A stretch of 29,827 bases of DNA, from assembly GCA_038882355.1 (NCBI GenBank), contig JAVZOJ010000001.1, positions 1 through 29,827 on the forward strand. The letters run 5' to 3'. Source of the stretch: Candidatus Micrarchaeaceae archaeon. GTDB lineage: Archaea; Micrarchaeota; Micrarchaeia; Micrarchaeales; CABMGC01. The notes below the pieces were generated by a model. It searched no databases. It was not told the origin of the DNA and saw only the letters and a program-made list of their open reading frames with translations. Made by a program: the position numbers and the translations under genes. Positions 6,293 to 19,025 of this stretch are shown here, piece by piece (the first letter of the stretch is position 1; every line of letters starts with the position of its first letter).

Positions 6293-7309
6293 TTGGTAAG
6301 TGGTTCATTGAAAGAATATGGTTACATAAAGAAAGTCATCACAAGGGTATTGAGCGAAGACTGCAGGACAAGCATTACAGAACTTTCGAAGAAAATAGGG
6401 ATTTCTAGAAATAGCGTAAGGAAATATTTGCTGCAGATAGAAAAAGAATTCAAGCCAAAGTATACTATAGAGCTTGACAAAAACCTTTTGAAAATAGCAA
6501 ATAGGCATTTCGTTGTGGCGAAGTTTAAGAATCGCCCTTCAGAAAAGGAGCTAAAGGAGATTACAGAAAAAGACATTAATATTCAGATAGCCGCTATTAC
6601 CAAAGGAGACTTTGATGCATTTTTCTATTTGGAAGCAATAGAAGGGAATGAATATACAGAAGCGGAGAACAGGCTCTCGGTGTCACTTTCTAAGTTTACC
6701 CCTACAATCTCGCCTTCATACATCACTTCGCTCCAAACTGGCTTCCTCCCCTCTTCTGAAGCCTTTATAAAGAAGGCCCTTGGCGCAAGCGAAACAAAAG
6801 AAGTGGATCTGAAAATCATATTGGAGCTTATGAATAATGCAAGAGAAAGCTACAGAGAGATAAGCAAGAAAGTAGGAATAAGTGAAGATTCAGTAAGGTA
6901 TAGGACGTTCAGACTCAAGGAGATGGGGTTGATAAAAAGATTTACAATGGCATATATGAGCCCTCCACTGAACCATGTTTTCTGCGCTTTGTTCAATTAT
7001 GTATTTTCTCAAGACATAGGGTTCAAAGCCGCAAAGGCAAGGAACGCCTATTTTGACCAAGAAAGCGAGTTGGGAATTCAGAATAAGTACAATCTGCTAG
7101 TGTCTATGACCGGAAGTTATAGGTTCATGATGTTTGTATCTGGAGAGACCACGGAAAACGCCCTTGAGATTGGTGTAATGAAGCACAAATCGATTTTTGG
7201 AAATTCCATATCTTCTTCTGCATGTGCAGAAGTAAAAAAGATAGTGAAAGGATATCTTCCAATAAGGAACATAGATCTGAAGAAAGACTATAAACAAATA
7301 AAGGTTTAG
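6293..7309 (+). CDS. Tandem (double) Lrp/AsnC-family transcriptional regulator
   Basis: Two Lrp-type HTH units: LSEDCRTSITELSKKIGISRNSVRKYL and DLKIILELMNNARESYREISKKVGISEDSVRYRTFRLKEMGLIKRFT, each followed by a ~100-aa effector-like domain. Confidence 0.88.
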   Translation: MVSGSLKEYGYIKKVITRVLSEDCRTSITELSKKIGISRNSVRKYLLQIEKEFKPKYTIELDKNLLKIANRHFVVAKFKNRPSEKELKEITEKDINIQIAAITKGDFDAFFYLEAIEGNEYTEAENRLSVSLSKFTPTISPSYITSLQTGFLPSSEAFIKKALGASETKEVDLKIILELMNNARESYREISKKVGISEDSVRYRTFRLKEMGLIKRFTMAYMSPPLNHVFCALFNYVFSQDIGFKAAKARNAYFDQESELGIQNKYNLLVSMTGSYRFMMFVSGETTENALEIGVMKHKSIFGNSISSSACAEVKKIVKGYLPIRNIDLKKDYKQIKV

Positions 7310-7962
7310 GCTCTCTCTATTTCTTTTGCAGAAATTTCGTTGCGCATGACAGCGCTTGCTCCAGCCTCGAGAAGCTCCTTTTCCGAAAACAATGATTCTA
7401 CCCCTATCGCCTTGATTCCAAGCTCTTTCGCTCCTATTATCATATACTTAGAGCCTGAAACAAGCTTGAATTCGTCAACATTTGAAATCTCTTTGCATCT
7501 TTCCTCTGCTTTTTTTATTATCTCTGCTGCATTATCTCCTTCATTTCCCCAGCCGCCGGTATAAAGCCTGCTCGATAGCCCAACCTTTTCTAATTTAAAT
7601 TTCGCAACCCTTTCAGGCTCCCACGTTGCGATTCCTACAAACGTTCCTGATTTGGCAAGCTTTTCTATTGAATCTCTCCCGCCTTTTATTTCTACCAGCT
7701 TGTCATGACCCGCTAGGTTGTAGTAAGAATAGTACATTTCTTCTGCGCAGTCACTTATCTTCCTATTTATTTCCCCTTCTTCTACGCCTTCTTTCAGGAG
7801 TATTTCCCTTATCGCCTGCCTTGCAGGTACACCGATATACTCGTTTACAGGCAGGCTTACTTCTATTCCATATATGTTCCTTATGGCCTCTTTTATATAA
7901 TCAGATACCTCTTTCTTCTCCTTCACCAACGTATGGCCTACGTCAAAGAGTATACATTGCAA
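7306..7962 (-). CDS. HAD-superfamily (phosphoglycolate phosphatase-like) protein with degenerate catalytic motifs
   Basis: Motif I ILFDVGHTL, motif II IATW, C-terminal GAKELGIKAIGV...SEKELLEAGA. Start reassigned to TTG 7962 (GGTG upstream); the longer ORF to 8064 overlaps the tRNA. Confidence 0.8.
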   Translation of the reverse strand: MQCILFDVGHTLVKEKKEVSDYIKEAIRNIYGIEVSLPVNEYIGVPARQAIREILLKEGVEEGEINRKISDCAEEMYYSYYNLAGHDKLVEIKGGRDSIEKLAKSGTFVGIATWEPERVAKFKLEKVGLSSRLYTGGWGNEGDNAAEIIKKAEERCKEISNVDEFKLVSGSKYMIIGAKELGIKAIGVESLFSEKELLEAGASAVMRNEISAKEIERA

Positions 7963-7984
7963 AGAGACACCAAGATTTTTTATT

Positions 7985-8000
7985 AAAGAAAGTATATAAA
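7985..8000 (+). promoter_or_regulatory. BRE-TATA promoter of tRNA-Gly
   Basis: AAAGAAAG followed by TATATAAA (7993-8000), 25-32 nt upstream of the tRNA 5' end. Confidence 0.6.
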
Positions 8001-8024
8001 TAATGTTATAAATATCTTTTATAC

Positions 8025-8098
8025 GCGAGTGTAGTCTAGCCTGGTAAGGACTTTGGCCTTCCAAGCCAAAGACCCGGGTTCAAATCCCGGCACTCGCA
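8025..8098 (+). tRNA. tRNA-Gly (anticodon TCC), intronless, CCA not encoded
   Basis: Acceptor stem GCGAGTG/CACTCGC plus discriminator A; D arm TAGTCTAGCCTGGTAAGGAC; anticodon arm TTGGC-CTTCCAA-GCCAA; T arm CCGGG-TTCAAAT-CCCGG. Confidence 0.97.
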
Positions 8099-8136
8099 TC
8101 CACGACATGGCTTCTTCCAGAAAAATTCAAACTTGG

Positions 8137-8272
8137 CAGACTGGGCAACTTAGCCCTTTGAGCAATATGCGTTTTGCTGCCGAGAGCAAGTGACAAAAAA
8201 CTTGCTCTCATTATGCGGCAGAGCCATGATGTTGAAGAGAGTCTCAAAACCTAAGGGCAGAAGCAAGGTCTG
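8137..8272 (+). ncRNA. Candidate structured ncRNA (nested rod-like hairpin) of unknown class
   Basis: Nested helices: 8137-8142/8267-8272, 8153-8158/8253-8258, 8159-8162/8243-8246, 8163-8168/8229-8234, 8177-8182/8216-8221, 8183-8191/8200-8208. Two G-U pairs favour the + strand. Confidence 0.5.
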
Positions 8273-8318
8273 AATAGTTACTTTCACATAAATAAAATTG
8301 CTTTATGATAAAGATCGC

Positions 8319-8339
8319 CGCAGATGGCAAAACCCTGCG
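8319..8339 (-). terminator. Possible hairpin downstream of the DUF460 gene
   Basis: CGCAG/CTGCG stem with inner GG/CC, 7 nt past the stop codon, followed on the minus strand by U-rich sequence. Confidence 0.3.
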
Positions 8340-8346
8340 AAATTAT

Positions 8347-8844
8347 TCACAAATACATTCTGCTCCCTCTTGGGGCTCTCCTCACGTTTATGTTCCTTAT
8401 TGCTTCGCTTATTGAACTTCTCATTATGATCCTCGCTTTGACCTCATCAACATCTGCGCCGAATTCTTTTGCAATCCTCTCTGCTTGGTTAAGCTTGTTT
8501 GTATAGTAGTTATAAGCAACCATAGCTCCAGAAAGGGCATCCCTCTCATGAACAGTGAGCTTTGCGCTAATCTTCTTCTCGATTTCCCTTTTCTTGCTTA
8601 CGCGTATGTCCTCTCTGGGCTCAAACAGAACAGACTGAAATACAGAGGCAAGCCTCACGATGGTTTCTTCGGCCCTGGCCTTGTCTGTAGCGATGATAGA
8701 AGGCCTTCCTGCGCTTTTAATCTCTTTTACAAACCATTCAAAATTAGCGAACCTCTGCTCTGAAGCAGAGACAAACCTGCCTGAGAGATCTATGCATGCG
8801 ATGGCGCTTACCTTTCCCAGGTCTACTCCCACTATTACATGCAG
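8347..8844 (-). CDS. Short DUF460-domain protein (RNase H-like fold N-terminus)
   Basis: VIVGVDLGKVSAIACIDLSG, GRPSIIATDK, LTVHERDALSGAMVAY resemble the DUF460 consensus. The first beta strand needs an upstream start; the only candidate before the in-frame stop is CTG at 8844 (GGGGT upstream). The track start is GTG 8832. Confidence 0.75.
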   Translation of the reverse strand: MHVIVGVDLGKVSAIACIDLSGRFVSASEQRFANFEWFVKEIKSAGRPSIIATDKARAEETIVRLASVFQSVLFEPREDIRVSKKREIEKKISAKLTVHERDALSGAMVAYNYYTNKLNQAERIAKEFGADVDEVKARIIMRSSISEAIRNINVRRAPRGSRMYL

Positions 8845-8909
8845 GCAATTACCCCGTTATTCCATTTTCGGCAACGCCACAGTCAACCCATGGCTCAGGC
8901 CTCGCGTTC

Positions 8910-9953
8910 TTAAGTGTTTGGGCATACGCTCGAGTTTGCGAAGCAGGTAGCATTATACGCACCATTTGGCAAAGACAAGTATCTGCAGTCTGTAATCACC
9001 TCTATCGGTGCAGAGATGTTGTAATAGCTTGCAAGGAGGGATTGGGCAGAGAGCGGCTGTGACGCGTTATACAGGCATGAACTGAGCTCCTTCGTATTTA
9101 AATACTTGTTTGCATAAGAGGAAAGAAGGTATGGAGATATGAATCCTGAAAGGTTGCTTAAAGAATTTACAAATGAATGAAACGATGAAGAGTTTTGAAG
9201 AGAAGCGCAGAATAGATATTCGCTTAGAGCAAGGGAGTTATTAAGCCCATAAGTGCTTGCAATATTTTGCGAATAATACCCAAATACAAGTTTAAGCGAA
9301 GGATTTACTTTTACGCCAAGCTTTTTGGTTTCATTGAACAGGTAGGACAAGCTTCTCAAGGATCCTGGAGCGTATGGATCTATGAACCAGTATTGCTGTA
9401 CAGGGTATGCTACGGAACATGCAGGCTTGTTAGCCAGAACAATAATGCCATTGGCAGATACATAGTTTTCGAGTATTTTTGAAGGAGAGGCTGCTTCTTC
9501 ATATGCATTCTCAACGTTTCCAGTGCTGCTATTGACTACAACTAAAAAGGTGAAGGAGCTGTTGCTGTATCTTACAGGCATTTCTATAATCCAAGCATTT
9601 GCTGTGGGTACAAAGTATTCGCTTGCAGAAGAAGTCCTAGAGTAAAATGGAAGTATTGAAAGAGAAGTATTTGTGTAAATGTAGCTTGCAATAAGCCTTT
9701 CTGCCTGGAGAAGTGCATATGAAGCATTATACTTTGGCACAATGCAAGAGCCCGAATAGAAGTATCTGCATGTGGCATTTGGCGAAGAGTTTGAAGCGGT
9801 AATGATGACTGGCTTTGAAGAAGACACTTCAAGGATTATTCCTATCAGTATTGCGACAAGCACCAATAAAGAAACGTGGAGATAGTCTAGCCCGCCTAAT
9901 CTTCCTACTGGCCTAATAATCAACTTTCCTTCTTTAGACACAGCTTTAGACAC
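8910..9953 (-). CDS. Membrane-anchored, glycosylated surface protein with PepSY-like and degenerate DsbA/thioredoxin-like regions
   Basis: N-terminal TM (VSLLVLVAILIGIIL), about 14 N-x-S/T sequons, 8 Cys, LVVVNSSTGNV (PepSY-like) and WFIDPYAPGS (FxDxxCPxC-like without Cys). Domain calls are by resemblance only. Confidence 0.6.
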   Translation of the reverse strand: MSKAVSKEGKLIIRPVGRLGGLDYLHVSLLVLVAILIGIILEVSSSKPVIITASNSSPNATCRYFYSGSCIVPKYNASYALLQAERLIASYIYTNTSLSILPFYSRTSSASEYFVPTANAWIIEMPVRYSNSSFTFLVVVNSSTGNVENAYEEAASPSKILENYVSANGIIVLANKPACSVAYPVQQYWFIDPYAPGSLRSLSYLFNETKKLGVKVNPSLKLVFGYYSQNIASTYGLNNSLALSEYLFCASLQNSSSFHSFVNSLSNLSGFISPYLLSSYANKYLNTKELSSCLYNASQPLSAQSLLASYYNISAPIEVITDCRYLSLPNGAYNATCFANSSVCPNT

Positions 9954-10121
9954 AGAAGCACCTTTGCCTCATCATAGCGGCCGAATCATAGCCTCGATAA
10001 ACCTATCTTCAATTCCCATGCACAAGGCCTAATCTTCAAATATATCTCCTCCCATGCTTTTATTCCTTTTTATTTACTGAGTACGCACAAAGGTTAAAAC
10101 TTTGATGGTAGAAAGTAAATT

Positions 10122-10412
10122 ATGATAAATATAGGGTTGTACTATAAGGTAAAGGAAGGGCGAGAGAAAGATTTTGAAAAAATGTTTCAAAGGATAAGAG
10201 AAGGATTGACGCGCCAAGAAGGCTTCAATTCGGCAAAGCTGTACAAGTCAGTAGAGGAGCAAAATGAATACATGATATACAGCGAATGGAAAGACCTAGA
10301 TTCATTCGCCAAATTTGTAAGAAGCGAGGCATTCAAGCAGGCAACAGCAGAAGGCAGGGAGATCATAGAGGGCACTCCAAAGCACAGGGTATTCCAAGAG
10401 CTATTTCAATGA
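10122..10412 (+). CDS. Antibiotic biosynthesis monooxygenase (ABM/IsdG-like) domain protein
   Basis: 96 aa; KVKEGREKDFE, QEGFNSAKLY, YMIYSEWKDLDSF and a C-terminal His (PKHRVF) match the ABM dimeric alpha/beta barrel pattern. Confidence 0.85.
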   Translation: MINIGLYYKVKEGREKDFEKMFQRIREGLTRQEGFNSAKLYKSVEEQNEYMIYSEWKDLDSFAKFVRSEAFKQATAEGREIIEGTPKHRVFQELFQ

Positions 10413-11017
10413 TATCTTTTCTTCTTTTAAAGGCAAGAAGCGAGTTCTATTCTCTTCCGCTATCTATGAGAGAGTATCTTTTGGGAGAAACGATAGACCT
10501 ATGCAAAGATTCAAATGTAAAAGCATTTTACTCCAAATACATAGAGCCAACTGTGGACTTGATATTGATGAAAAAGGGAAAAGACATTGAAGAAATATCT
10601 GAATTCTATTCGAATTCCCTTAGAAAAATATATCCATACATAAATACTGTTGAAAACTATTTTGGATATGAAAAGAGCAAAGACGATGTGGAAACAAATG
10701 AAAAGTATTTGATCCTTTACCCATTTACAAAGACCCACGAATGGTACCAAAAAAGTGAGGAAGAAAGGAAGAAAATGATGGAAGAGCACATAAGAATAGG
10801 CTCCAACTACAAAGGAGTAAAGCAGCTTCTTTTGGAATCTTTTGGAATATCAGAATCTGACTTCGTACTTGCATACTTTGCGAATGAGCTTGAGGAATTC
10901 TCAAAAGTTGTAAAAGAGCTCAGGTACACAAAAGCAAGGATTTATACAAAATCAGATACGCCAATATATGTAGGCATAAAGAAAGAAATAGGCCCCGCAT
11001 TTATGGGCATGCTTTGA
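10409..11017 (+). CDS. chdC: Coproheme decarboxylase (ChdC/HemQ; chlorite dismutase family)
   Basis: YPFTK (catalytic Tyr and Lys+4), EWYQ...ERKKMMEEH (proximal His), VKQLLLESFG (distal Gln rather than the chlorite dismutase Arg), KELRYTKAR...TPIYVG. Start ATG 10409 overlaps the ABM stop (ATGA). Confidence 0.82.
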   Translation: MISFLLLKARSEFYSLPLSMREYLLGETIDLCKDSNVKAFYSKYIEPTVDLILMKKGKDIEEISEFYSNSLRKIYPYINTVENYFGYEKSKDDVETNEKYLILYPFTKTHEWYQKSEEERKKMMEEHIRIGSNYKGVKQLLLESFGISESDFVLAYFANELEEFSKVVKELRYTKARIYTKSDTPIYVGIKKEIGPAFMGML

Positions 11018-11174
11018 TAGTTTGTCTGCATGTCAAAAAGCAAAATCAGATTGATCTATATGCATGAGAGGCTTATGCTTGCATGCGTCCTTTCTTACAG
11101 CGCAGCCAAGAAACTGCTACTGCAGAAAGGCCCGTTCTCCATTCACAATGCATGTTTCCTTGCGAGGTGATTAG

Positions 11175-12074
11175 ATGAAAGCATTGCTGATGTCCTACGG
11201 CAGCCCTAAAGAAATAAGCAGAGAAGAGATTAGAAGATATTATACAAATGTAAGGCACGGGGCTGAGCCAAGCGAAGAGCTTCTGAATGATCTTTTCAGA
11301 AGGTACAGTGCAATAGGAGGCGCTACACCTCTTGAAAAGGTCACATATTCGATAGTGAGAAAGGTAAATGAAAGGCTCGGGAAAGAGATAGCAGTGCCTG
11401 CATTTAGGCACTCATTTCCATTTATAAAAGATGCAATAGAAAACATTGAAGAAAAGGATATGGTCTTTTCCTTTCCTCTTGTTCCGCATAAGAGCTCATT
11501 GACTCTAAGCCTTTACCACGAAGAGGTATATGAATATGCAAAAAAGGAAGGATTCAAGTCTGTCGCTTTCTCAAAGGGCTTTGCGGACAACAAAATATTC
11601 CAGGAAGCCTATGCAAAAGAGATAGCGAAGCTGAATGAAGACGCATTTACAATATTTACAGCACACAGCATACCGATAAACAGGCTAATGGTCAAAGAAG
11701 ACCCGTATTTTGAAGACCTGAAGAGATCGGCAGATGGAATAGCGCGCATCGCGAAGATCCACGATTATGCAATCGCGTTTCAAAGTGCAGGAAGAACTAA
11801 TGACATATGGCTTGGACCCACTGTGGAAGAAACAATCGACATGCTTATAGAAAAAGGAGTAAAAAGGTTCTTGATTGTACCCCAAGGGTTCCTTATAGAC
11901 AACCTTGAAACATTATATGACATCGATATTGAACTGAAAGAAAAATACAAAGGAAAGGCAGAAATAAAAAGGGCAAGCTGTGTAAATGATTCAGAAGACA
12001 TTATAAGAATGATTTGCGAGATTTTAGAGAGGCTGGAGAAGATCCAGGTCCAAGGAGCTGCTTCGCTCTTCTGA
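11175..12074 (+). CDS. cpfC: Ferrochelatase (coproporphyrin ferrochelatase CpfC/HemH)
   Basis: LLMSYGSP, RRYSAIGGATPL, FTAHSIP, FQSAGRTNDIWLGP, GFLIDNLETLYDID; GAGGTGA ribosome site upstream. Confidence 0.93.
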   Translation: MKALLMSYGSPKEISREEIRRYYTNVRHGAEPSEELLNDLFRRYSAIGGATPLEKVTYSIVRKVNERLGKEIAVPAFRHSFPFIKDAIENIEEKDMVFSFPLVPHKSSLTLSLYHEEVYEYAKKEGFKSVAFSKGFADNKIFQEAYAKEIAKLNEDAFTIFTAHSIPINRLMVKEDPYFEDLKRSADGIARIAKIHDYAIAFQSAGRTNDIWLGPTVEETIDMLIEKGVKRFLIVPQGFLIDNLETLYDIDIELKEKYKGKAEIKRASCVNDSEDIIRMICEILERLEKIQVQGAASLF

Positions 12075-13043
12075 ATACTCTTTCTTTTCCGCAAGCTTCA
12101 TCTCTACCCCTGTAATTAGGCTCATCACCCTTATCTCGTCTTTTAGCTCAGGCAGAAGCCTTGCTCCAAAGATTACATTTGCGTCTGGGGCCAGCTCAGA
12201 AGTCACGCCTTCGCCTATCTGCCTTGCTTCGTCGATTGTTAGCGCATATCCAGATGTTATATGGACAAGCGCTCCCTTTGCGCCCTTATAATCTACTGAA
12301 AGAAGCGGATGGCTCCTTGTAGATCTAATCGCTTGCTCGACCCTGTCGTTCCCTGCTCCGCTCCCTATGCTTATTACTGCTGTTCCGCTGTTTAGGAGCA
12401 CGCTTCTCAGGTCTGCATAATCGAGCTGTATGAGGCTAGGGAAGGATATTGTGTCTGCAATGCCCTTTACTGCATTTCCTATGATTGTATCTACTGCTTC
12501 AAACGCTTTTTCGAGAGGAAGGTTCGGAACATAGCTTAGCAACTTTTCATTTTCTATAACGATGGTTGAGTCTACCTCCTTTACCAGCTCCTTTAATCCT
12601 TCATCGGCAGTAGCCCTCTTATTCTTTTCCATTTGGAAAGGGTATGTAACGATCGCAACCACCAAAGCGCCAAGCTCTTTCGCTATCCTTCCTATTACTG
12701 GCGCTGCGCCTGTGCCTGTTCCTCCTCCCATTCCTGCGCACAGAAATACGAGGTTATATCCTTCAAGAGCAGCAATGACTTGGTCTTTGCTTATCTCTAC
12801 GCACCTTTTTGCTATTTCCGGGAATCCGCCTGCACCGAGGCCGTTTGTTATCTCTTTTCCGATCAGCAGCTTTTTGTGTGCTTTGGTAGTAGACCTAAGG
12901 TGAAGAAGGTCAGTATTTATTGCAATGGTCTCTGCGCTCTTTATGTTCGAGTTGTACAGCCTCGTTACTGCGTTGCACCCTTGGCCGCCTACTCCTACAA
13001 CGGCAATTCTTGCGCCTTGGAATGTGTCAAATTCGTCTTCCAT
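12024..13043 (-). CDS. ftsZ: Cell division GTPase FtsZ, FtsZ2-like paralog A (divergent)
   Basis: GVGGQGCNAV, INTD, GLGAGG, signature GMGGGTGTGAAPV; FtsZ2-type YVPNLP, PSLIQLDYAD and HPLLSVDYKGA. Confidence 0.95.
   Translation of the reverse strand: MEDEFDTFQGARIAVVGVGGQGCNAVTRLYNSNIKSAETIAINTDLLHLRSTTKAHKKLLIGKEITNGLGAGGFPEIAKRCVEISKDQVIAALEGYNLVFLCAGMGGGTGTGAAPVIGRIAKELGALVVAIVTYPFQMEKNKRATADEGLKELVKEVDSTIVIENEKLLSYVPNLPLEKAFEAVDTIIGNAVKGIADTISFPSLIQLDYADLRSVLLNSGTAVISIGSGAGNDRVEQAIRSTRSHPLLSVDYKGAKGALVHITSGYALTIDEARQIGEGVTSELAPDANVIFGARLLPELKDEIRVMSLITGVEMKLAEKKEYSEERSSSLDLDLLQPL
12697..12752. repeat. 56-bp perfect direct repeat, copy 1 (in ftsZ paralog A)
   Basis: ACTGGCGCTGCGCCTGTGCCTGTTCCTCCTCCCATTCCTGCGCACAGAAATACGAG, identical to 13719-13774 (checked base by base). 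Confidence 0.97.
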
Positions 13044-13054
13044 GCTCTTTCACC

Positions 13055-14098
13055 TTATATAAAGTCTAGGCTTGCATTATGGCTTTCACTCTTTTCTGAA
13101 ATCTTTCCTACAATGCTTCCTCCCTTCACTCCTGTAATTATTGCAACGATTTCCAGCTGGTCTTCCATCCCTGGCATTATTCTTGCTCCAAACTTTATCG
13201 TAGCAGATGGACTCATACGCTCAGAGATAAGCGATCCTGCCCTTATTGCATCGCCTAGGGTCAGGTCTCTTGAGCCGGTAATATGGAGCAAGCCTCCTTT
13301 CGCGTCTTCAAAGTCTACGTCCAAGAGCTTGTTCTTCATTACTCCCTCTACCGCAGCCTCAACCTTTCCGGCTCCCTTTCCTGTGCCTACTGATATGAAT
13401 CCAACTTCTCCTCTGCTCATAACCGCTTTTACATCTGCAAAGTCTATGCGTATAAGGCTTTCTTGCGTTATTGTCCACACAAGGCCGATTATCGCCTTTG
13501 CAAGAATGCTATCTGCCATCTCAAACGCAGTGTTCATCGGACTGTTTGCAAAGGCTTTTACTACTCTGTTGTTATCTAGGATAATTACGCTGTCGCAATA
13601 CTTTCTTAGCTCATTTATCCCCGCCTCTGCATTCACCTTTCTTTGCCTCTCCAAATCGAAAGGATATGTAACCATAGCCATTACAATAGCTCCTTCCTCC
13701 TTTGCAACTTGCGCAATGACTGGCGCTGCGCCTGTGCCTGTTCCTCCTCCCATTCCTGCGCACAGAAATACGAGATGGGAACCTTTGAGCACATCGCTTA
13801 TCAGCTTCCTGTCAGCCTCAGCTGCCTTTCTCCCTATCATTGGATCTCCTCCTGCGCCGAGACCCCTTGTTATTCCTTTTCCAATAAGGACTTTCTTTAT
13901 TCTGTCATCTATGATCCTAAAGTGTTGAACATCTGTATTCACAGCAACTAGCTCAGTTCCTTTTACTCCCATATTCAGGAGTCTATTCACTGTGTTGCTT
14001 CCTCCTCCACCAACGCCTACTGTCACAATCTTTATTTGTGGAATCTCGTCCACAGCTTCGCTATTAGAACCCAAAAATTCTGTTCCAACGTCGGACAT
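13055..14098 (-). CDS. ftsZ: Cell division GTPase FtsZ, FtsZ2-like paralog B
   Basis: GVGGGGSNTVNRL, VNTD, GLGAGGDP, GMGGGTGTGAAPV, PFDLERQR, LDNNR, ESLIRIDFAD. Start reassigned to ATG 14098 (GGCGAT upstream, TATA 32 nt upstream). An 11-nt spacer containing GGTGA links it to paralog A. Confidence 0.95.
   Translation of the reverse strand: MSDVGTEFLGSNSEAVDEIPQIKIVTVGVGGGGSNTVNRLLNMGVKGTELVAVNTDVQHFRIIDDRIKKVLIGKGITRGLGAGGDPMIGRKAAEADRKLISDVLKGSHLVFLCAGMGGGTGTGAAPVIAQVAKEEGAIVMAMVTYPFDLERQRKVNAEAGINELRKYCDSVIILDNNRVVKAFANSPMNTAFEMADSILAKAIIGLVWTITQESLIRIDFADVKAVMSRGEVGFISVGTGKGAGKVEAAVEGVMKNKLLDVDFEDAKGGLLHITGSRDLTLGDAIRAGSLISERMSPSATIKFGARIMPGMEDQLEIVAIITGVKGGSIVGKISEKSESHNASLDFI
13719..13774. 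repeat. 56-bp perfect direct repeat, copy 2 (in ftsZ paralog B)
   Basis: Identical to 12697-12752, 1022 bp apart, in the same codon register. Confidence 0.97.
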
Positions 14099-14130
14099 TC
14101 TGATCGCCCATTTACAATATACCAAGAAAT

Positions 14131-14146
14131 ATTTAAAAGCTTTTTC
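14131..14146 (-). promoter_or_regulatory. BRE-TATA promoter of the ftsZ-ftsZ operon
   Basis: Minus strand GAAAAAGC-TTTTAAAT, 32 nt upstream of ATG 14098. Confidence 0.65.
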
Positions 14147-14217
14147 TAAAGGAATACACATTTTACTTCCACAAGTTTTAAAGGAATTCCAAGCGCAAGT
14201 GAGGAATCACAGGCCGC

Positions 14218-14940
14218 TTATAAATTTTCAGGCGCATAAATATTTAATCCGCTAGTTGTTATTTCATATGGAGCTGTGGCCCTGCTGTGGTTAATGCCTC
14301 TCATCTTTATTACTTCCATCCCCAGCATTCGCTTGTCCTTTTCCCCCATCTGGTACATGGCAATAATTCCGTCGAATAGAAAATCGTCTTCCTTGAATGA
14401 GAGATCAGACCTTTCAGGAGAATGCATCTCCTTTGTCAATATTGAGGTGACTTTGAGTCTCTTCAAGTTTCCTATAAATACAAGCATATTCCTTCTGTAT
14501 ACAATCCTATTTTCCATAATCAGCTCAAATATGGACAAAGAATCTACGACGATTCTTTTTGCATTGTATGTCTCTATCAAACTCTCTATTTCTGCCACTA
14601 CTTTGCTGAATTCATAGCCAGTACGCGTTTCGTCAGTGTCTCTTATTATTCTAGAAGGGTCTGCGCCATCTATTATAAGAAGGTTTTTAGAAATAAGGTC
14701 ATCGATGTCTGTGAAGTCTTTGAAGGTGTTTTTTGCATTCTTTATTACGTCTTCAGTCGACTCTTCCAATGCGAAGAATATGCTGCATGCACCGGCTTTG
14801 GCAGACCTATATGCAAATTCAAAAGAAAGGAGAGTCTTTCCGGATCCGGGACTTCCTGTTACTATTACTTGATTACTTTCAGGTATTCCGCCACCCAAGA
14901 GTGTATCAAGGCCCTTTATATTCGTTGGTATGACCTGCAT
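14218..14940 (-). CDS. Single-domain KaiC-like / RAD55-family ATPase
   Basis: IPTNIKGLDTLLGGGIP, Walker A GSPGSGKT, FALEE, Walker B IVVDSLS, FDGII, IKMRG (Arg finger). Confidence 0.92.
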   Translation of the reverse strand: MQVIPTNIKGLDTLLGGGIPESNQVIVTGSPGSGKTLLSFEFAYRSAKAGACSIFFALEESTEDVIKNAKNTFKDFTDIDDLISKNLLIIDGADPSRIIRDTDETRTGYEFSKVVAEIESLIETYNAKRIVVDSLSIFELIMENRIVYRRNMLVFIGNLKRLKVTSILTKEMHSPERSDLSFKEDDFLFDGIIAMYQMGEKDKRMLGMEVIKMRGINHSRATAPYEITTSGLNIYAPENL

Positions 14941-14969
14941 TCAAATCTATCTTATTATTGACCACAATA

Positions 14970-15064
14970 ATTATAAAGTCTATCTTAGTTTTTCTTCGCA
15001 CTTTTTATGGTTCAAATTGCTTTCGAAAGAGTGGAAGAAAACGTGTGAAAAGATAGATATAAAA
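14970..15064. promoter_or_regulatory. Symmetric divergent promoter region for the kaiC-like and pilin genes
   Basis: Minus-strand TTTATAAT (14970-14977) and plus-strand ATATAAAA (~15057-15064), each preceded by AAGATAGA and, further upstream, AGTG(C)GAAGAAAA(A)C. Confidence 0.55.
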
Positions 15065-15095
15065 GAAAGTGAAGCAATTAGATATGGTCAATTCC

Positions 15096-15614
15096 ATGGT
15101 ATTTGGAAAAGGAAAGCTGTGCTTCGCAGGAAAAAGATTGCAGAGCGCGATGGAATACCTGACGACCTATGGATGGGCAATTCTTATTATTGCAATAGTT
15201 CTTGGAGTTCTTGTCTCTCTGGGCTTGTTCTCCCCTGGCAGGCTGGCTCCAAACCAATGCCTAGTAGAGGCAGGGTTTACGTGCCTGCAGGTTTACCTAA
15301 GCGCAAATGGGCTGCTAACTGTAAACATAGAGCAGACTACAAGCACACCAATTAATGTTACAGGAATAGAATGTGTGAACAACGTTACATTTGCTTATAT
15401 GCAGACGCCTTACAATCCGCCATCAAATCAAATAAACATAAATATAGGGGGAAATTATACGTTCTCCGTATTTTGCAAGAATAGCGCGAATGGGGCAGTC
15501 ATTTCAGGAAATCCTGGCTCTCTTTTTCAAGGCTACTTTATAATGAATTACACAGACATAACTACAGGATTTTCCCACGTGCTTTATGGGAAGATTTCTG
15601 TGAAGTACAGCTAA
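15096..15614 (+). CDS. Class III signal peptide (type IV pilin-like) protein
   Basis: GKRL-QSAMEYLTTYGWAILIIAIVLGVLVSLGLFSP: basic residues, Glu at +5 and a hydrophobic helix, followed by Cys pairs and N-glycosylation sequons. Start uncertain (15069, 15084 or 15096). Confidence 0.8.
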   Translation: MVFGKGKLCFAGKRLQSAMEYLTTYGWAILIIAIVLGVLVSLGLFSPGRLAPNQCLVEAGFTCLQVYLSANGLLTVNIEQTTSTPINVTGIECVNNVTFAYMQTPYNPPSNQININIGGNYTFSVFCKNSANGAVISGNPGSLFQGYFIMNYTDITTGFSHVLYGKISVKYS

Positions 15615-16366
15615 TCATAGGCCGCCTTCCTTAATTCGCCGATGGTGCCAAAGTCTATCGTTTCATGCTCTCCAAGGCAATATGCCCTGAGATTATCAAT
15701 ATTCGCCCTCTTTTTGAAGATTGGAGCCAAGTCATAGAGGTCGCCTCCCATCATATTCGACTCCACGCCCTCTGAATAATAGCTCATTGCTGGAAGTATA
15801 AGAAGGTCGTTTCCTTTTTTCGTCTTGCCATAAAGGAAGCACTTTACTTTTTCTTTCACTCCTACCGAGTTGTATATTGCTATGGCAGGATGCATATGGC
15901 CCATAACCATTGTTTTCTTCTCCTCGCTAGCATCTTCTTCCCCATGGAAAAAGAGGTAATCAAAGACCTTATACTCTTGCCGGTATATCTCAAACCCCAA
16001 AGGTCTAGAGAGCCTGTCTACAAAATTGTCATGGTTTCCCTTTACAAGTATGATTTCTTTTATACCTGTCTTGGCCTTCATAAATGAGATAAGCTCCCTA
16101 AACTCATTAAACTCTTCCACATGTACATTTGAAAACTCATTCTTTATATCCCCATCAATGATAATCTTGCTTGGCGAGAACTCATTGCAGGCTTCTGTGA
16201 TAATCCTTATTATATTCTTCAGATTCGCCTTAGGGAGAAACACGCCTTTGTCTGCCATAACCCCTTCATATCCGAGATGAAGATCTGAACAAACAATGGA
16301 GTCAAGCTCACTTATATATGCGACAGGGATTCCTTCCCCAAGCTCTATTTTTCTGTTTAGCCTCAA
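15611..16366 (-). CDS. Lhr-associated metallophosphoesterase (calcineurin-like, MPE)
   Basis: SDLHLGYE, IIDGDIK, KGNHD, FFHG and MGHMHP metal motifs. Start reassigned to TTG 16366, 4 nt after the lhr stop, with GGGGTGA upstream. Confidence 0.9.
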   Translation of the reverse strand: MRLNRKIELGEGIPVAYISELDSIVCSDLHLGYEGVMADKGVFLPKANLKNIIRIITEACNEFSPSKIIIDGDIKNEFSNVHVEEFNEFRELISFMKAKTGIKEIILVKGNHDNFVDRLSRPLGFEIYRQEYKVFDYLFFHGEEDASEEKKTMVMGHMHPAIAIYNSVGVKEKVKCFLYGKTKKGNDLLILPAMSYYSEGVESNMMGGDLYDLAPIFKKRANIDNLRAYCLGEHETIDFGTIGELRKAAYD

Positions 16367-16370
16367 CGGC

Positions 16371-19025
16371 TCACCCCATTTCTGCGAGCCTTTCAAGGAC
16401 CTGCTTGTGAAGCTCTTTAAGGTGCTTCCTCCTATCTTTCATCATAACAATATCTGCCTCTCCCAATGTTATAAGCGTGTGGGAAAACGGGGACGGCGAG
16501 GGGGTCTTCACTACCATGTACTTTATCTCCTTTCTTGCGATTGAATTTATAATCATCTTGGACTTTGGGAGGTCCATAATGTCTTCGAATATTTCTCTGT
16601 ATGTCTCCTTTAATATTGGAAAATTCTCGCTTATTTCCTCAACAGCCTTCAAGAGTTGCTGAGAGCTTAGCTGCTGCCTATTCACGCTTATCTTCTTTCC
16701 TTTATAATTTCTAAGAACCATAAACCCTCTTGTTGAGCAGTGCCTGAATTTCCTTTTCATGAGCTCCGTCCTCTTTATATTTTCTTTTAGAATCCTTTCT
16801 ATGTCTACTTCGTTGATCCTTTCCAATAGTTCTTCTATGTCTTTTGCGCTCACTTTTACATGCTTTCCCACAACGATGCAGAAGCCATTGTCATTTACCA
16901 TTATCCCAACATCCGTAGAGTAGATATCACCTATTGCTATGCCAAATATTCTCGACAAAGTGTCATTTATCCTTCTTCCAAACATTGAATGAAAGATCAG
17001 ATATTGGTTCTGAGATTTTAGGTCTTTTGTAAGCTCTACAACAAGAAGGTTGTGCTTAGGTATAAAGTCTGCAAAAAGGATTTGCTCTAAAAAGTAAGAG
17101 TAGATTGCCCTTTTTGCATTTTCATCGATAGGCATGGAGTCGAGCAATTCCCTTGCTTCGCTTCCTATCTTAATGCTGTTCTTTACAAGCATATGTGCGA
17201 GCATTCCCTTGCTTTTTATCTCTTTCCTTATAGCGTTCTCCAACTTTTCCCTAAATTTTCCGATCTCCAGCGCAAGCTCGTAAGTCAAAGGGAGCTGCTC
17301 TGAAAACCAAGGAGGTATGGTGGGCGTTGGGGAATCAGACTTTGATACATAGCACTTCATTCCTGAAGACCTTTCGAACTTATAGAGCTTCCCTCCAAGA
17401 ACGAAAATGTCTCCAGGTTTTAGCCTGGAGAGGAATTCTTCCTCTATGCTCCCTATCCACTTCCCTTCTGAAGAAAATACGTCTACGGCTACTTCATCAG
17501 GTATTGTGCCTATGTTCAGGTAGTATATGATCTTCCCATATCTGCCTCTTTTCCCAAATTCCATCGCGTTCTCATCATACCATATCTTGCCATAGACCCT
17601 TCTGCTCTCTAGCCCTACATACATTCCTGAAAGGTATTCAAGAAGTGAGAGGAAGTCTTTCTTGCTGAGGTCCTTATATGGATAAGCCCTCTTTACAACA
17701 TTAAAGGCTTCATCCACCTTCCATTTCTTGTTCAACGCCATGCCTACAATGTGCTGCGCAAGGACGTCAAGCGCGTTTTTAGGGATTGAGAAAGAGTCAA
17801 GATGCCTCTTCTTGGCCGCATCAAGCATTACAGAGCATTCTACAAGGTCATCTCTATTTAAGACGATAACTAGCCCTTTCGCAACGTCGTTGAACCTATG
17901 CCCGCTCCTTCCTATCCTTTGCAGTGCCCTTGTTACGCTCTTTGGGGAACCGAGCTGGATCACCTCGTCTATGCTTCCTATATCTACTCCAAGTTCAAGG
18001 CTTGTCGATGAAACGACGCATTTGAGCTTGCCTTTCTTGAGCATGTCTTCTACGCCAAGCCTTAGCTCTCTGGAAAGGGAGCCGTGATGCGCAGCAATCT
18101 CCTCTTCTTTATAATGCTTCTTCTTCATCAAGTTGAAAACGACCCTCTCTGTTCCGCTTCTTGTGTTTGTAAAAATAAGCACTGTCTTGCTCCTCCTAAT
18201 TTCTCTATCTATTATCGAATAAGTCTTTTCTTCTATCTCTGATTCTTCGGCGCTTATCATGTCTTCTACAGGACTTATTGTTTTAAACTCCATCTTTTTG
18301 TCCCAAGTAGCATCAACGATTACGCAGTCTCTCTCTTGCATATTTTTTCCGAGACCTACAAGGAACCTTGCAGCTTCTTCTATAGGGAAAAGCGTTGCGC
18401 CCAAGCCAATCCTTATGAAGTCCCTTCCTATCATCTCTGCCAGCCTTTCAAGAGAAAGGGAGAGGTGAACCCCCCTTTTGTTGTTTGCTAGCTCATGGAT
18501 TTCATCTATTACTACATACCTCACCTCACTCAAATGCTCGGAAAACTTTTCGCTATTCAGCATGATTGCAAGGCTTTCAGGAGTAGTGACCAATATATGA
18601 GGCGGATTCTTTAATTGCCTTTGCCTCTCGCTTTGGGTCGTATCTCCAGTCCTTATCCCAACCCTTATTCTGTTTGGGCCAAGAAGGGGCGCTATCTCCT
18701 CCAAAGGCTCTGAGAGATTCTTATATATGTCGTTGTTCAAGGCCCTAAGCGGAGAGATGTAAACACAGTATATTTTGTCTTTCAGCTCATTTTTCTCGAT
18801 GAGAGAGATGAGGCTGCTTATTATAGACATAAAAGCAGAGAAGGTTTTTCCGCTTCCTGTAGGGGCAGTTATGAGAACACTCTTTCCTTCTGCGATAAGC
18901 TTGAACGCAAACCTCTGCGGAGAGGTCAATGAAGGATATTTAGACTTGAACCATTCCCTTATTATTGGATGGAGAACTGACAAGGCTTCATCTTCTGAGA
19001 ATGGCTCCTTTTGATAACTAATCAA
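16371..19025 (-). CDS. lhr: Lhr-family SF2 helicase (Lhr-core)
   Basis: HPIIREWF, APTGSGKT, YISPLRALNND, TTPESL, DEIH, GLGAT, HHGSLS, TSSLELGVDIG, QRIGRSGH, LDVLAQH. Start TTG 19025 (GGTGA upstream) or ATG 19043; the track extension to 19157 overlaps lig. Confidence 0.95.
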   Translation of the reverse strand: MISYQKEPFSEDEALSVLHPIIREWFKSKYPSLTSPQRFAFKLIAEGKSVLITAPTGSGKTFSAFMSIISSLISLIEKNELKDKIYCVYISPLRALNNDIYKNLSEPLEEIAPLLGPNRIRVGIRTGDTTQSERQRQLKNPPHILVTTPESLAIMLNSEKFSEHLSEVRYVVIDEIHELANNKRGVHLSLSLERLAEMIGRDFIRIGLGATLFPIEEAARFLVGLGKNMQERDCVIVDATWDKKMEFKTISPVEDMISAEESEIEEKTYSIIDREIRRSKTVLIFTNTRSGTERVVFNLMKKKHYKEEEIAAHHGSLSRELRLGVEDMLKKGKLKCVVSSTSLELGVDIGSIDEVIQLGSPKSVTRALQRIGRSGHRFNDVAKGLVIVLNRDDLVECSVMLDAAKKRHLDSFSIPKNALDVLAQHIVGMALNKKWKVDEAFNVVKRAYPYKDLSKKDFLSLLEYLSGMYVGLESRRVYGKIWYDENAMEFGKRGRYGKIIYYLNIGTIPDEVAVDVFSSEGKWIGSIEEEFLSRLKPGDIFVLGGKLYKFERSSGMKCYVSKSDSPTPTIPPWFSEQLPLTYELALEIGKFREKLENAIRKEIKSKGMLAHMLVKNSIKIGSEARELLDSMPIDENAKRAIYSYFLEQILFADFIPKHNLLVVELTKDLKSQNQYLIFHSMFGRRINDTLSRIFGIAIGDIYSTDVGIMVNDNGFCIVVGKHVKVSAKDIEELLERINEVDIERILKENIKRTELMKRKFRHCSTRGFMVLRNYKGKKISVNRQQLSSQQLLKAVEEISENFPILKETYREIFEDIMDLPKSKMIINSIARKEIKYMVVKTPSPSPFSHTLITLGEADIVMMKDRRKHLKELHKQVLERLAEMG

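Follow-up and report, generated by a model that had tools for sequence, protein, structure and literature searches.

Why would an archaeon keep the last two steps of haem b synthesis when the steps before them are not found in its genome? The question is raised by three genes at positions 10122-12074 of a stretch of 29,827 nucleotides (positions 1 to 29,827 of the forward strand of contig JAVZOJ010000001.1, assembly GCA_038882355.1, Candidatus Micrarchaeaceae archaeon), which is called the window below. A sequence-only reading of the window had described a co-oriented cassette of ABM, chdC and cpfC genes at this place, and all three are found there on the plus strand:

10122..10412, plus strand: ABM-fold protein of 96 amino acids (PF03992, E 1.6e-17)
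10409..11017, plus strand: ChdC/HemQ-like coproheme decarboxylase of 202 amino acids (PF06778, E 3.1e-35, 122 bits)
11175..12074, plus strand: CpfC-type ferrochelatase of 299 amino acids (PF00762, E 4.1e-53; TIGR00109, 142.9 bits)

Our reading, to which we give a probability of roughly 0.55, is that the cassette is the surviving end of a coproporphyrin-dependent (CPD) haem pathway in a genome-reduced Micrarchaeon, and that it is fed by external porphyrin. The observed part of this reading consists of the identity of the genes, the intact catalytic residues and fold, the upstream genes not found, and the recurrent truncation of the pathway in relatives.

Are the enzymes real, and of which kind are they? 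Judged by their strong full-length family matches and conserved catalytic residues, the three genes are genuine and not chance open reading frames. The ferrochelatase matches PF00762 with 180.9 bits (cut-off 27), its residues 4-285 aligning to profile positions 5-314 of 317, and its score with the TIGR00109 hemH model lies above the cut-off of 124.6 for ferrochelatase. Its E-values are about 3e-41 against the solved Bacillus and Listeria CpfCs and about 1e-16 against human or yeast PpfC. In the alignment, Y13, H183 and E264 of the B. subtilis enzyme are matched by residue Y8, by the His of an AHS motif and by the Glu of a DNLE motif; we take Y13 to be a mark of the CpfC type over the PpfC type. 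By alignment, the ferrochelatase is of the CpfC rather than the PpfC type. Where B. subtilis has DHLE, the motif reads DNLE, with Asn in place of the His before the catalytic Glu; this is not a private defect, because most Micrarchaeota orthologs have the same Asn. Outside its own genome, the nearest matches share about 36-40% identity with CpfC and 44% with ChdC.

In the ChdC-like protein, Y104-P-F-T-K108 corresponds by alignment to the catalytic Tyr motif (YPFVRS) of actinobacterial ChdCs, and H127 to their proximal His. Among 66 homologs, conservation of Y104, P105, K108 and H127 is 90% or higher. Pfam PF06778 covers only the C-terminal half of the protein; an AlphaFold model computed from the alignment of these homologs (mean pLDDT 95.2) contains both ferredoxin-like domains, and its top PDB matches in Foldseek are Streptomyces coelicolor ChdC chains (TM 0.83-0.86). 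The block SFGISESDF, which we take to lie at the distal-Arg position of true chlorite dismutases, holds no Arg. With Y104 and H127 of ChdC and Y8, His and Glu of CpfC kept, and a pLDDT of 95 for the ChdC model, the enzymes do not appear to be inactive.

Then is the upstream pathway really missing? The genome is a Micrarchaeota metagenome-assembled genome of 549,520 bases in 57 contigs, 88.67% complete with 0.2% contamination, and is the smallest of the 61 compared here (60 genomes of the same family and order, and itself). Pfam searches of the whole assembly for ALAD, URO-D, PBGD, HEM4, GlutR_N and Amino_oxidase (CgoX) were all negative, and control genomes were positive for each of them. Searches by tblastn with Micrarchaeota UROD, PBGD-HEM4, GluTR, CgoX and ALAD gave no match at E <= 0.01 and no fragments at contig ends; phmmer and tblastn with Micrarchaeota UROD, PBGD-UROS, GluTR, CgoX, ALAD, GSAM and radical-SAM proteins found no ortholog or fragment in the genome. 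Thus no complete upstream pathway was found elsewhere in the genome by Pfam, tblastn or phmmer, and its absence is not proven because the genome is only 88.7% complete. Two other routes to haem were considered and rejected. For the siroheme (Ahb) route, the sole TP_methylase match in the genome is diphthine synthase (TIGR00522, 162.9 bits), and hemB, hemC and hemD were not found. For a radical-SAM alternative, no ortholog was found of the AhbD-like enzyme that three relatives described below have (G040, G060 and G052); a generic 32-bit match is all that the genome gives.

The locus itself is assembled without a break over about 10 kb to one side of the cassette and 18 kb to the other, and has no extra haem genes; in relatives such genes mostly sit close to CpfC and ChdC. 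Upstream lie two genes on the minus strand, for a DUF460 protein and for a 347-residue protein without a Pfam match, and downstream two ftsZ genes that are convergent to the cassette. No haem gene is among the flanking genes in the window. Since the neighbours are of these kinds, the cluster is indeed without hemE or cgoX, as the first description had it.

Is such truncation peculiar to this genome? Ferrochelatase is absent from 48 of the 60 relatives, and the genomes that have haem genes form a kind of staircase. A complete coproporphyrin pathway is found in G040 and G060, with the order UROD-CpfC-PBGD-UROS-GluTR-CgoX-radical SAM-GSAM-ALAD in the operon of G040; the complete operons are located at L040 (G040:C3) 7404-17299 and L041 (G060:C17), and no Chlor_dismutase-family gene was found in either genome. 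Six further genomes, 93-96% complete, carry PBGD, UROD, CpfC and ChdC (G049 at locus L031, G007 at L032, G045 at L033, G048 at L034, G024 at L035 and G043 at L037). GluTR, ALAD and CgoX were not found in these six, so that their pathway would have to start at porphobilinogen. Four of them have PBGD and UROS fused into one protein of about 560-590 amino acids, and the PBGD of G043 lies about 45 kb from its cassette. G038, with UROD, CpfC and ChdC, represents the uroporphyrinogen-onward stage. The last two steps only are found in G050 (95% complete), which has just CpfC and ChdC, and in G052 (93% complete), which has two tandem ferrochelatases and an AhbD-like radical-SAM gene (locus L039, G052:C30, about 7230-10371; E 9e-136 to the G040 enzyme). 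No ChdC and no upstream haem genes were found in G052, which is a second, oxygen-independent form of the state with only the last two steps. Because G050, G052 and others show truncated pathways, the truncation is recurrent and not an assembly artefact, and the genome studied here is the eroded end of the coproporphyrin-pathway series.

The staircase offers a natural series for the order in which a cofactor pathway erodes, and the lineage-wide pattern is more interesting than the single locus. It is a tentative and rather doubtful extension that each stage is functional, so that different symbionts draw porphobilinogen, uroporphyrinogen III or coproporphyrin III from their hosts and tetrapyrrole precursors are a traded currency in DPANN symbioses.

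A second ChdC lineage was seen among the same relatives, at L035:9197-9835 in G024 with orthologs in G038, G043, G045, G048 and G050. It has a YP(I/M)SK motif and a 3-residue insert, and matches Ta0507 of Thermoplasma acidophilum at 2e-37 and actinobacterial ChdC at 1e-14. Thermoplasmatales include known hosts of Micrarchaeota, and gene exchange with them is possible for this lineage on the strength of these matches.

How did the cassette come to be in this genome? The closest ChdC, with 44% identity, is on L002, a contig from another metagenome. Synteny extends further there: the DUF460 gene and a 367-residue counterpart of the 347-residue protein adjoin ABM-ChdC-CpfC. Directly 3' of the ferrochelatase L002 carries hemA, at the place where the window has the 3' end of ftsZ; this hemA (L002:4725-5735) encodes a short GluTR of 336 amino acids that scores 185 bits with TIGR01035, under the cut-off of 209.55. 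In the ChdC tree the gene of the window is sister to that of L002 (support 99), in a clade with G007 and G049 and within Micrarchaeota. The free CpfC tree leaves the position of the gene unresolved on a long branch of 2.17; constraining it with L002 improves the likelihood by 9.97, which is the only informative tree test for CpfC. Identities to L002 are 49% for ABM, 44% for ChdC and 40% for CpfC, against 34% and 46% for the two flanking genes, so the cassette shows no faster decay than the genes around it. Taken together, the trees and synteny favour vertical descent with loss of the upstream genes.

What does the ABM protein do in such a cassette? Among NCBIfam models it fits best the C-terminal ABM part of PRK09565 'heme-binding protein' (E 7.3e-12), a match limited to the last 85 positions of that model and scoring 45.5 bits against a whole-protein cut-off of 446 bits. 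The N-terminal part of the same model is matched by the ChdC-like protein. We assume PRK09565 to be the family of haloarchaeal PitA. Residues N3, W56 and H88 of the ABM protein are conserved in five Micrarchaeota orthologs; H88, its only His, is 32 residues past the conserved Trp, a position that presumably differs from that of the IsdG ligand. An ABM ortholog is present in 9 of the 61 genomes, all nine with ferrochelatase, and in none of the 48 ferrochelatase-less ones. The ABM gene adjoins ChdC or CpfC in L002, G024 and G048 and lies near the operon in G060. An IsdG-type haem oxygenase was considered and rejected, the scores with the IsdG, IsdI and HmuQ models being far under their cut-offs: 42.1 against 130 bits for HmuQ, 18.6 against 200 for IsdI, and 17-22 against 115-119 for other haem-oxygenase models. 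Because of the co-occurrence with ferrochelatase, the likeness to PitA and these low scores, a role in accepting haem is favoured over one in degrading it, and the protein is likely, by analogy, a haem acceptor or chaperone, the free-standing counterpart of the PitA ABM domain. The sequence-only reading had allowed for handling or degrading of haem; handling fits the PitA precedent, and degrading finds no backing in the haem-degrader models.

No ChdC-ABM fusion was seen among the long ChdC homologs inspected, which are instead fused to Rieske, AhbA/B-like, M48 and other domains. The database proteins P0219, P0233, P0250 and P0263 join the ChdC family to a Rieske [2Fe-2S] domain, and the P0263 fusion runs on into siroheme-decarboxylase-like (AhbA/B-type) domains.

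Put together, the cassette would work in three steps. CpfC would insert Fe2+ into coproporphyrin III of outside origin, supplied by the host or the surroundings and not made by the cell. ChdC would decarboxylate the resulting coproheme to haem b through its Tyr104/His127 site. The ABM protein, which would be translationally coupled to ChdC, would then accept the product haem and protect or deliver it, as has been proposed for the ABM domain of PitA. Coproporphyrin III and coproheme are named as substrates because a ChdC with its catalytic motif is retained. Beyond what is observed, we infer an external supply of porphyrin, its uptake, the role of the ABM protein and a haem client. The client is probably cytochrome bd, which most relatives with the cassette have; it was not found in this assembly. 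Cytochrome bd occurs in 6 of the 8 relatives with both ChdC and CpfC and in 9 of the 52 others, which is a pattern and not a test because the genomes are not phylogenetically independent.

Several points weigh against this reading, and the lack of a found haem client is its main weakness for this genome. The genome gave no match to cytochrome bd subunit I, COX1, cytochrome b, catalase, KatG-type peroxidase or DyP, its CxxCH motifs are only single and at chance level, and no porphyrin or haem importer could be identified in it. The counts across relatives are not phylogenetically independent, and the genome is only 88.7% complete. The ChdC-like protein does not reach the NCBIfam cut-offs for HemQ equivalogs (84.9 against 235 bits for NF042928, 47.8 against 253 for NF008913). 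These models are tuned to Actinobacteria and Firmicutes, and the shortfall is attributed to divergence and to a reduced N-terminal half; since the protein falls below the thresholds from divergence, it is read as ChdC-like by mechanism and not as a strict equivalog. Both enzymes stand at the end of very long branches, 1.25 for ChdC and 2.17 for CpfC, and both may have an altered or relaxed function. The earlier proposal that haem is finished from imported coproporphyrin is plausible and partly supported: of the two outcomes that it had named as refuting it, no complete upstream pathway turned up and the enzymes look active; the import we infer, with neither an importer nor a haem-using protein found.

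Could a cytochrome bd be hidden in an assembly gap? In many relatives cydA is preceded by a membrane-protein gene, and contig C45 breaks off within such a gene. We do not count this as evidence, since the contig end may be chimeric: C45:1-385 is 97.9% identical in DNA to G001:C27, from another genus, and the likeness stops abruptly at 385. Either chimerism or a recent transfer may explain this segment, which codes for the first part of an uncharacterised membrane protein, about 215 amino acids long. The protein is polytopic and has no Pfam or NCBIfam match (examples are G007:C18:15689-16204 and L038:11198-11821). Its gene lies directly 5' of cydA in 10 of 15 relatives with cytochrome bd and, in G038, at a distance of about 3 kb from the haem genes; many genomes that lack cydA have it too.

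What else could the cassette be? One rival, which we consider unlikely, is that the proteins handle exogenous haem or protoporphyrin: CpfC would metallate scavenged protoporphyrin IX or help to remove iron, and the ChdC-like and ABM proteins would serve iron supply or detoxification as haem binders, chaperones, peroxidases or degraders. It has the precedent of Lactococcus lactis, a haem auxotroph that uses its ferrochelatase on exogenous protoporphyrin IX to activate CydAB (PMC4696147), and that of Mia14, another Micrarchaeon, which is thought to obtain haem from its host (PMC5498576). The ABM protein does show a weak similarity to the haem degraders HmuQ and IsdG (E 8e-11 to 5e-3), and the missing haem client suits this rival as well. 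However, the kept ChdC with an intact Tyr motif and proximal His argues for coproheme as substrate, the HmuQ, IsdG and IsdI models give 17-42 bits against cut-offs of 115-200, and in relatives the genes of the cassette form part of operons for biosynthesis, together with UROD and PBGD.

It is more doubtful still that the cassette is a decaying relic without current function, persisting transiently after the loss of the pathway and its clients. One might expect a relic in the smallest of the 61 genomes, with no client found, very long terminal branches, a ChdC shortened by small deletions (202 amino acids, 213-231 in orthologs) and 48 of 60 relatives already without ferrochelatase. Against this, all three frames are open, every checked catalytic residue is kept, the ChdC model has a pLDDT of 95, a start-stop overlap and a Shine-Dalgarno-like site are in place, and the cassette genes differ from those of L002 no more than their neighbours do; the well-assembled G050 and G052, which keep only the last two steps, suggest a stable rather than a fleeting state. 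Finally, it is very improbable that the pathway is complete or much longer, with the missing genes in the unassembled 11% of the genome: despite a completeness of 88.67% in 57 contigs, hemA after the ferrochelatase of L002 and a PBGD about 45 kb away in G043, six or seven genes would all need to fall in gaps, the locus is contiguous with ftsZ where L002 has hemA, no fragments lie at contig ends, and relatives that are 93-97% complete show similar truncations.

The layout of the locus adds some detail, including two further elements:

10092..10099, plus strand: TATA-like A/T-rich element GGTTAAAA, read from the sequence, 23-30 nt 5' of the ABM start codon
11164..11170, plus strand: Shine-Dalgarno-like GAGGTGA, read from the sequence, 4 nt 5' of the ferrochelatase ATG

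The GGTTAAAA element is a possible promoter candidate, from which the operon mRNA would be near-leaderless. The open reading frame listed for ChdC runs over 10286-11017; the alignment of orthologs begins only at the ATG at 10409, so this is the likely start, giving 202 amino acids. The ChdC start codon then overlaps the ABM stop by 4 nt as ATGA. GAGGTGA sits within the 157-nt spacer between the ChdC and ferrochelatase genes, where it may serve as an internal ribosome-binding site if the genes share a transcript. The last 51 nt of the ferrochelatase gene (12024-12074) overlap the 3' end of the convergent ftsZ; the C-terminus of the protein extends beyond that of most orthologs, as is expected after a deletion or rearrangement at the ftsZ junction. 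The 347-residue protein (8910-9953, minus strand) carries a hydrophobic segment at its N-terminus, is rich in Cys and has many Asn-x-Ser/Thr sites, and its counterpart in L002, which also adjoins the cassette, is 34% identical. It is probably a surface protein, and no evidence ties it to haem. Other genes of the window are archaeal, namely those for LonB, topoisomerase VI A, aRF1, ATP-dependent DNA ligase and Lhr. For aRF1, the best matches that carry a name come from Candidatus Micrarchaeia / Micrarchaeota and do not exceed 69% identity.

What would follow if the reading is right? The usual assumption is that DPANN archaea obtain their cofactors ready-made from their hosts. A recurring module of CpfC, ChdC and ABM without the upstream genes suggests that some Micrarchaeota import a porphyrin intermediate and finish haem themselves. 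In Mia14 a cytochrome bd without any haem synthesis genes was called puzzling (PMC5498576); if the doubtful extension to a trade in several tetrapyrrole precursors were true, it would answer how Micrarchaeota with cytochrome bd get their haem, and the genome studied here would be the coproporphyrin-dependent extreme. The reading of the cassette itself proposes a concrete metabolite exchange, and feeding with coproporphyrin III might aid cultivation. A survey of DPANN archaea lists HemC, HemE and HemH among the annotated cofactor enzymes across Altiarchaeota, Diapherotrites and Micrarchaeota (PMC8407392), and our literature searches found no paper naming a cassette of only CpfC and ChdC, with or without ABM, in Micrarchaeota. 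Retention of terminal enzymes in haem auxotrophs is already known; its coproporphyrin form in a DPANN archaeon is the new part.

How does the cassette compare with known systems? With the CPD pathway of Firmicutes and Actinobacteria (UroD, CgoX, CpfC, ChdC) it shares the last two enzymes, CpfC and ChdC being homologous to them with catalytic residues kept and finding their best solved matches in the CpfCs of B. subtilis and L. monocytogenes and in S. coelicolor ChdC. It differs in that the genome encodes only the last two steps and that the sequences are very divergent. The relatives G040 and G060 belong to the same phylum and have the same type of pathway; for them de novo synthesis of haem is possible, with a radical-SAM enzyme where the genome studied here has ChdC.

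Haloarchaeal PitA, a ChdC domain fused to an ABM-like domain, presents the same association of ABM with ChdC. Deletion of PitA in Haloferax volcanii impairs aerobic growth, which protoheme rescues; PitA is needed for aerobic haem synthesis, and protoheme was bound in its ABM-like domain, which was proposed as a receiver of the product (PMC5746218). In the window the two are separate genes, with ABM first, a 4-nt overlap and no His-rich linker, and haem binding is only predicted, by analogy.

Loss from the top with terminal enzymes kept for acquired porphyrins has also been described for Porphyromonas gingivalis with HemD/N/G/H and for Bacteroides living on protoporphyrin IX (PMC13096392, PMC4696147). 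Those are host-associated bacteria using the protoporphyrin branch, whereas here the coproporphyrin branch is found in a DPANN archaeon. The closest analogue is L. lactis. As in the genome studied here, our control searches of it gave Ferrochelatase and Chlor_dismutase matches and no ALAD, PBGD, HEM4 or URO-D; its genome is positive for Cyt_bd_oxida_I, while cydAB was not found in the assembly studied here. L. lactis can respire with CydAB if haem or protoporphyrin IX is supplied, and its hemH metallates external porphyrin (PMC4696147). It is, however, a bacterium with protoporphyrin IX as its documented substrate and no ABM partner described, whereas in the Micrarchaeon ChdC points to coproporphyrin III and coproheme.

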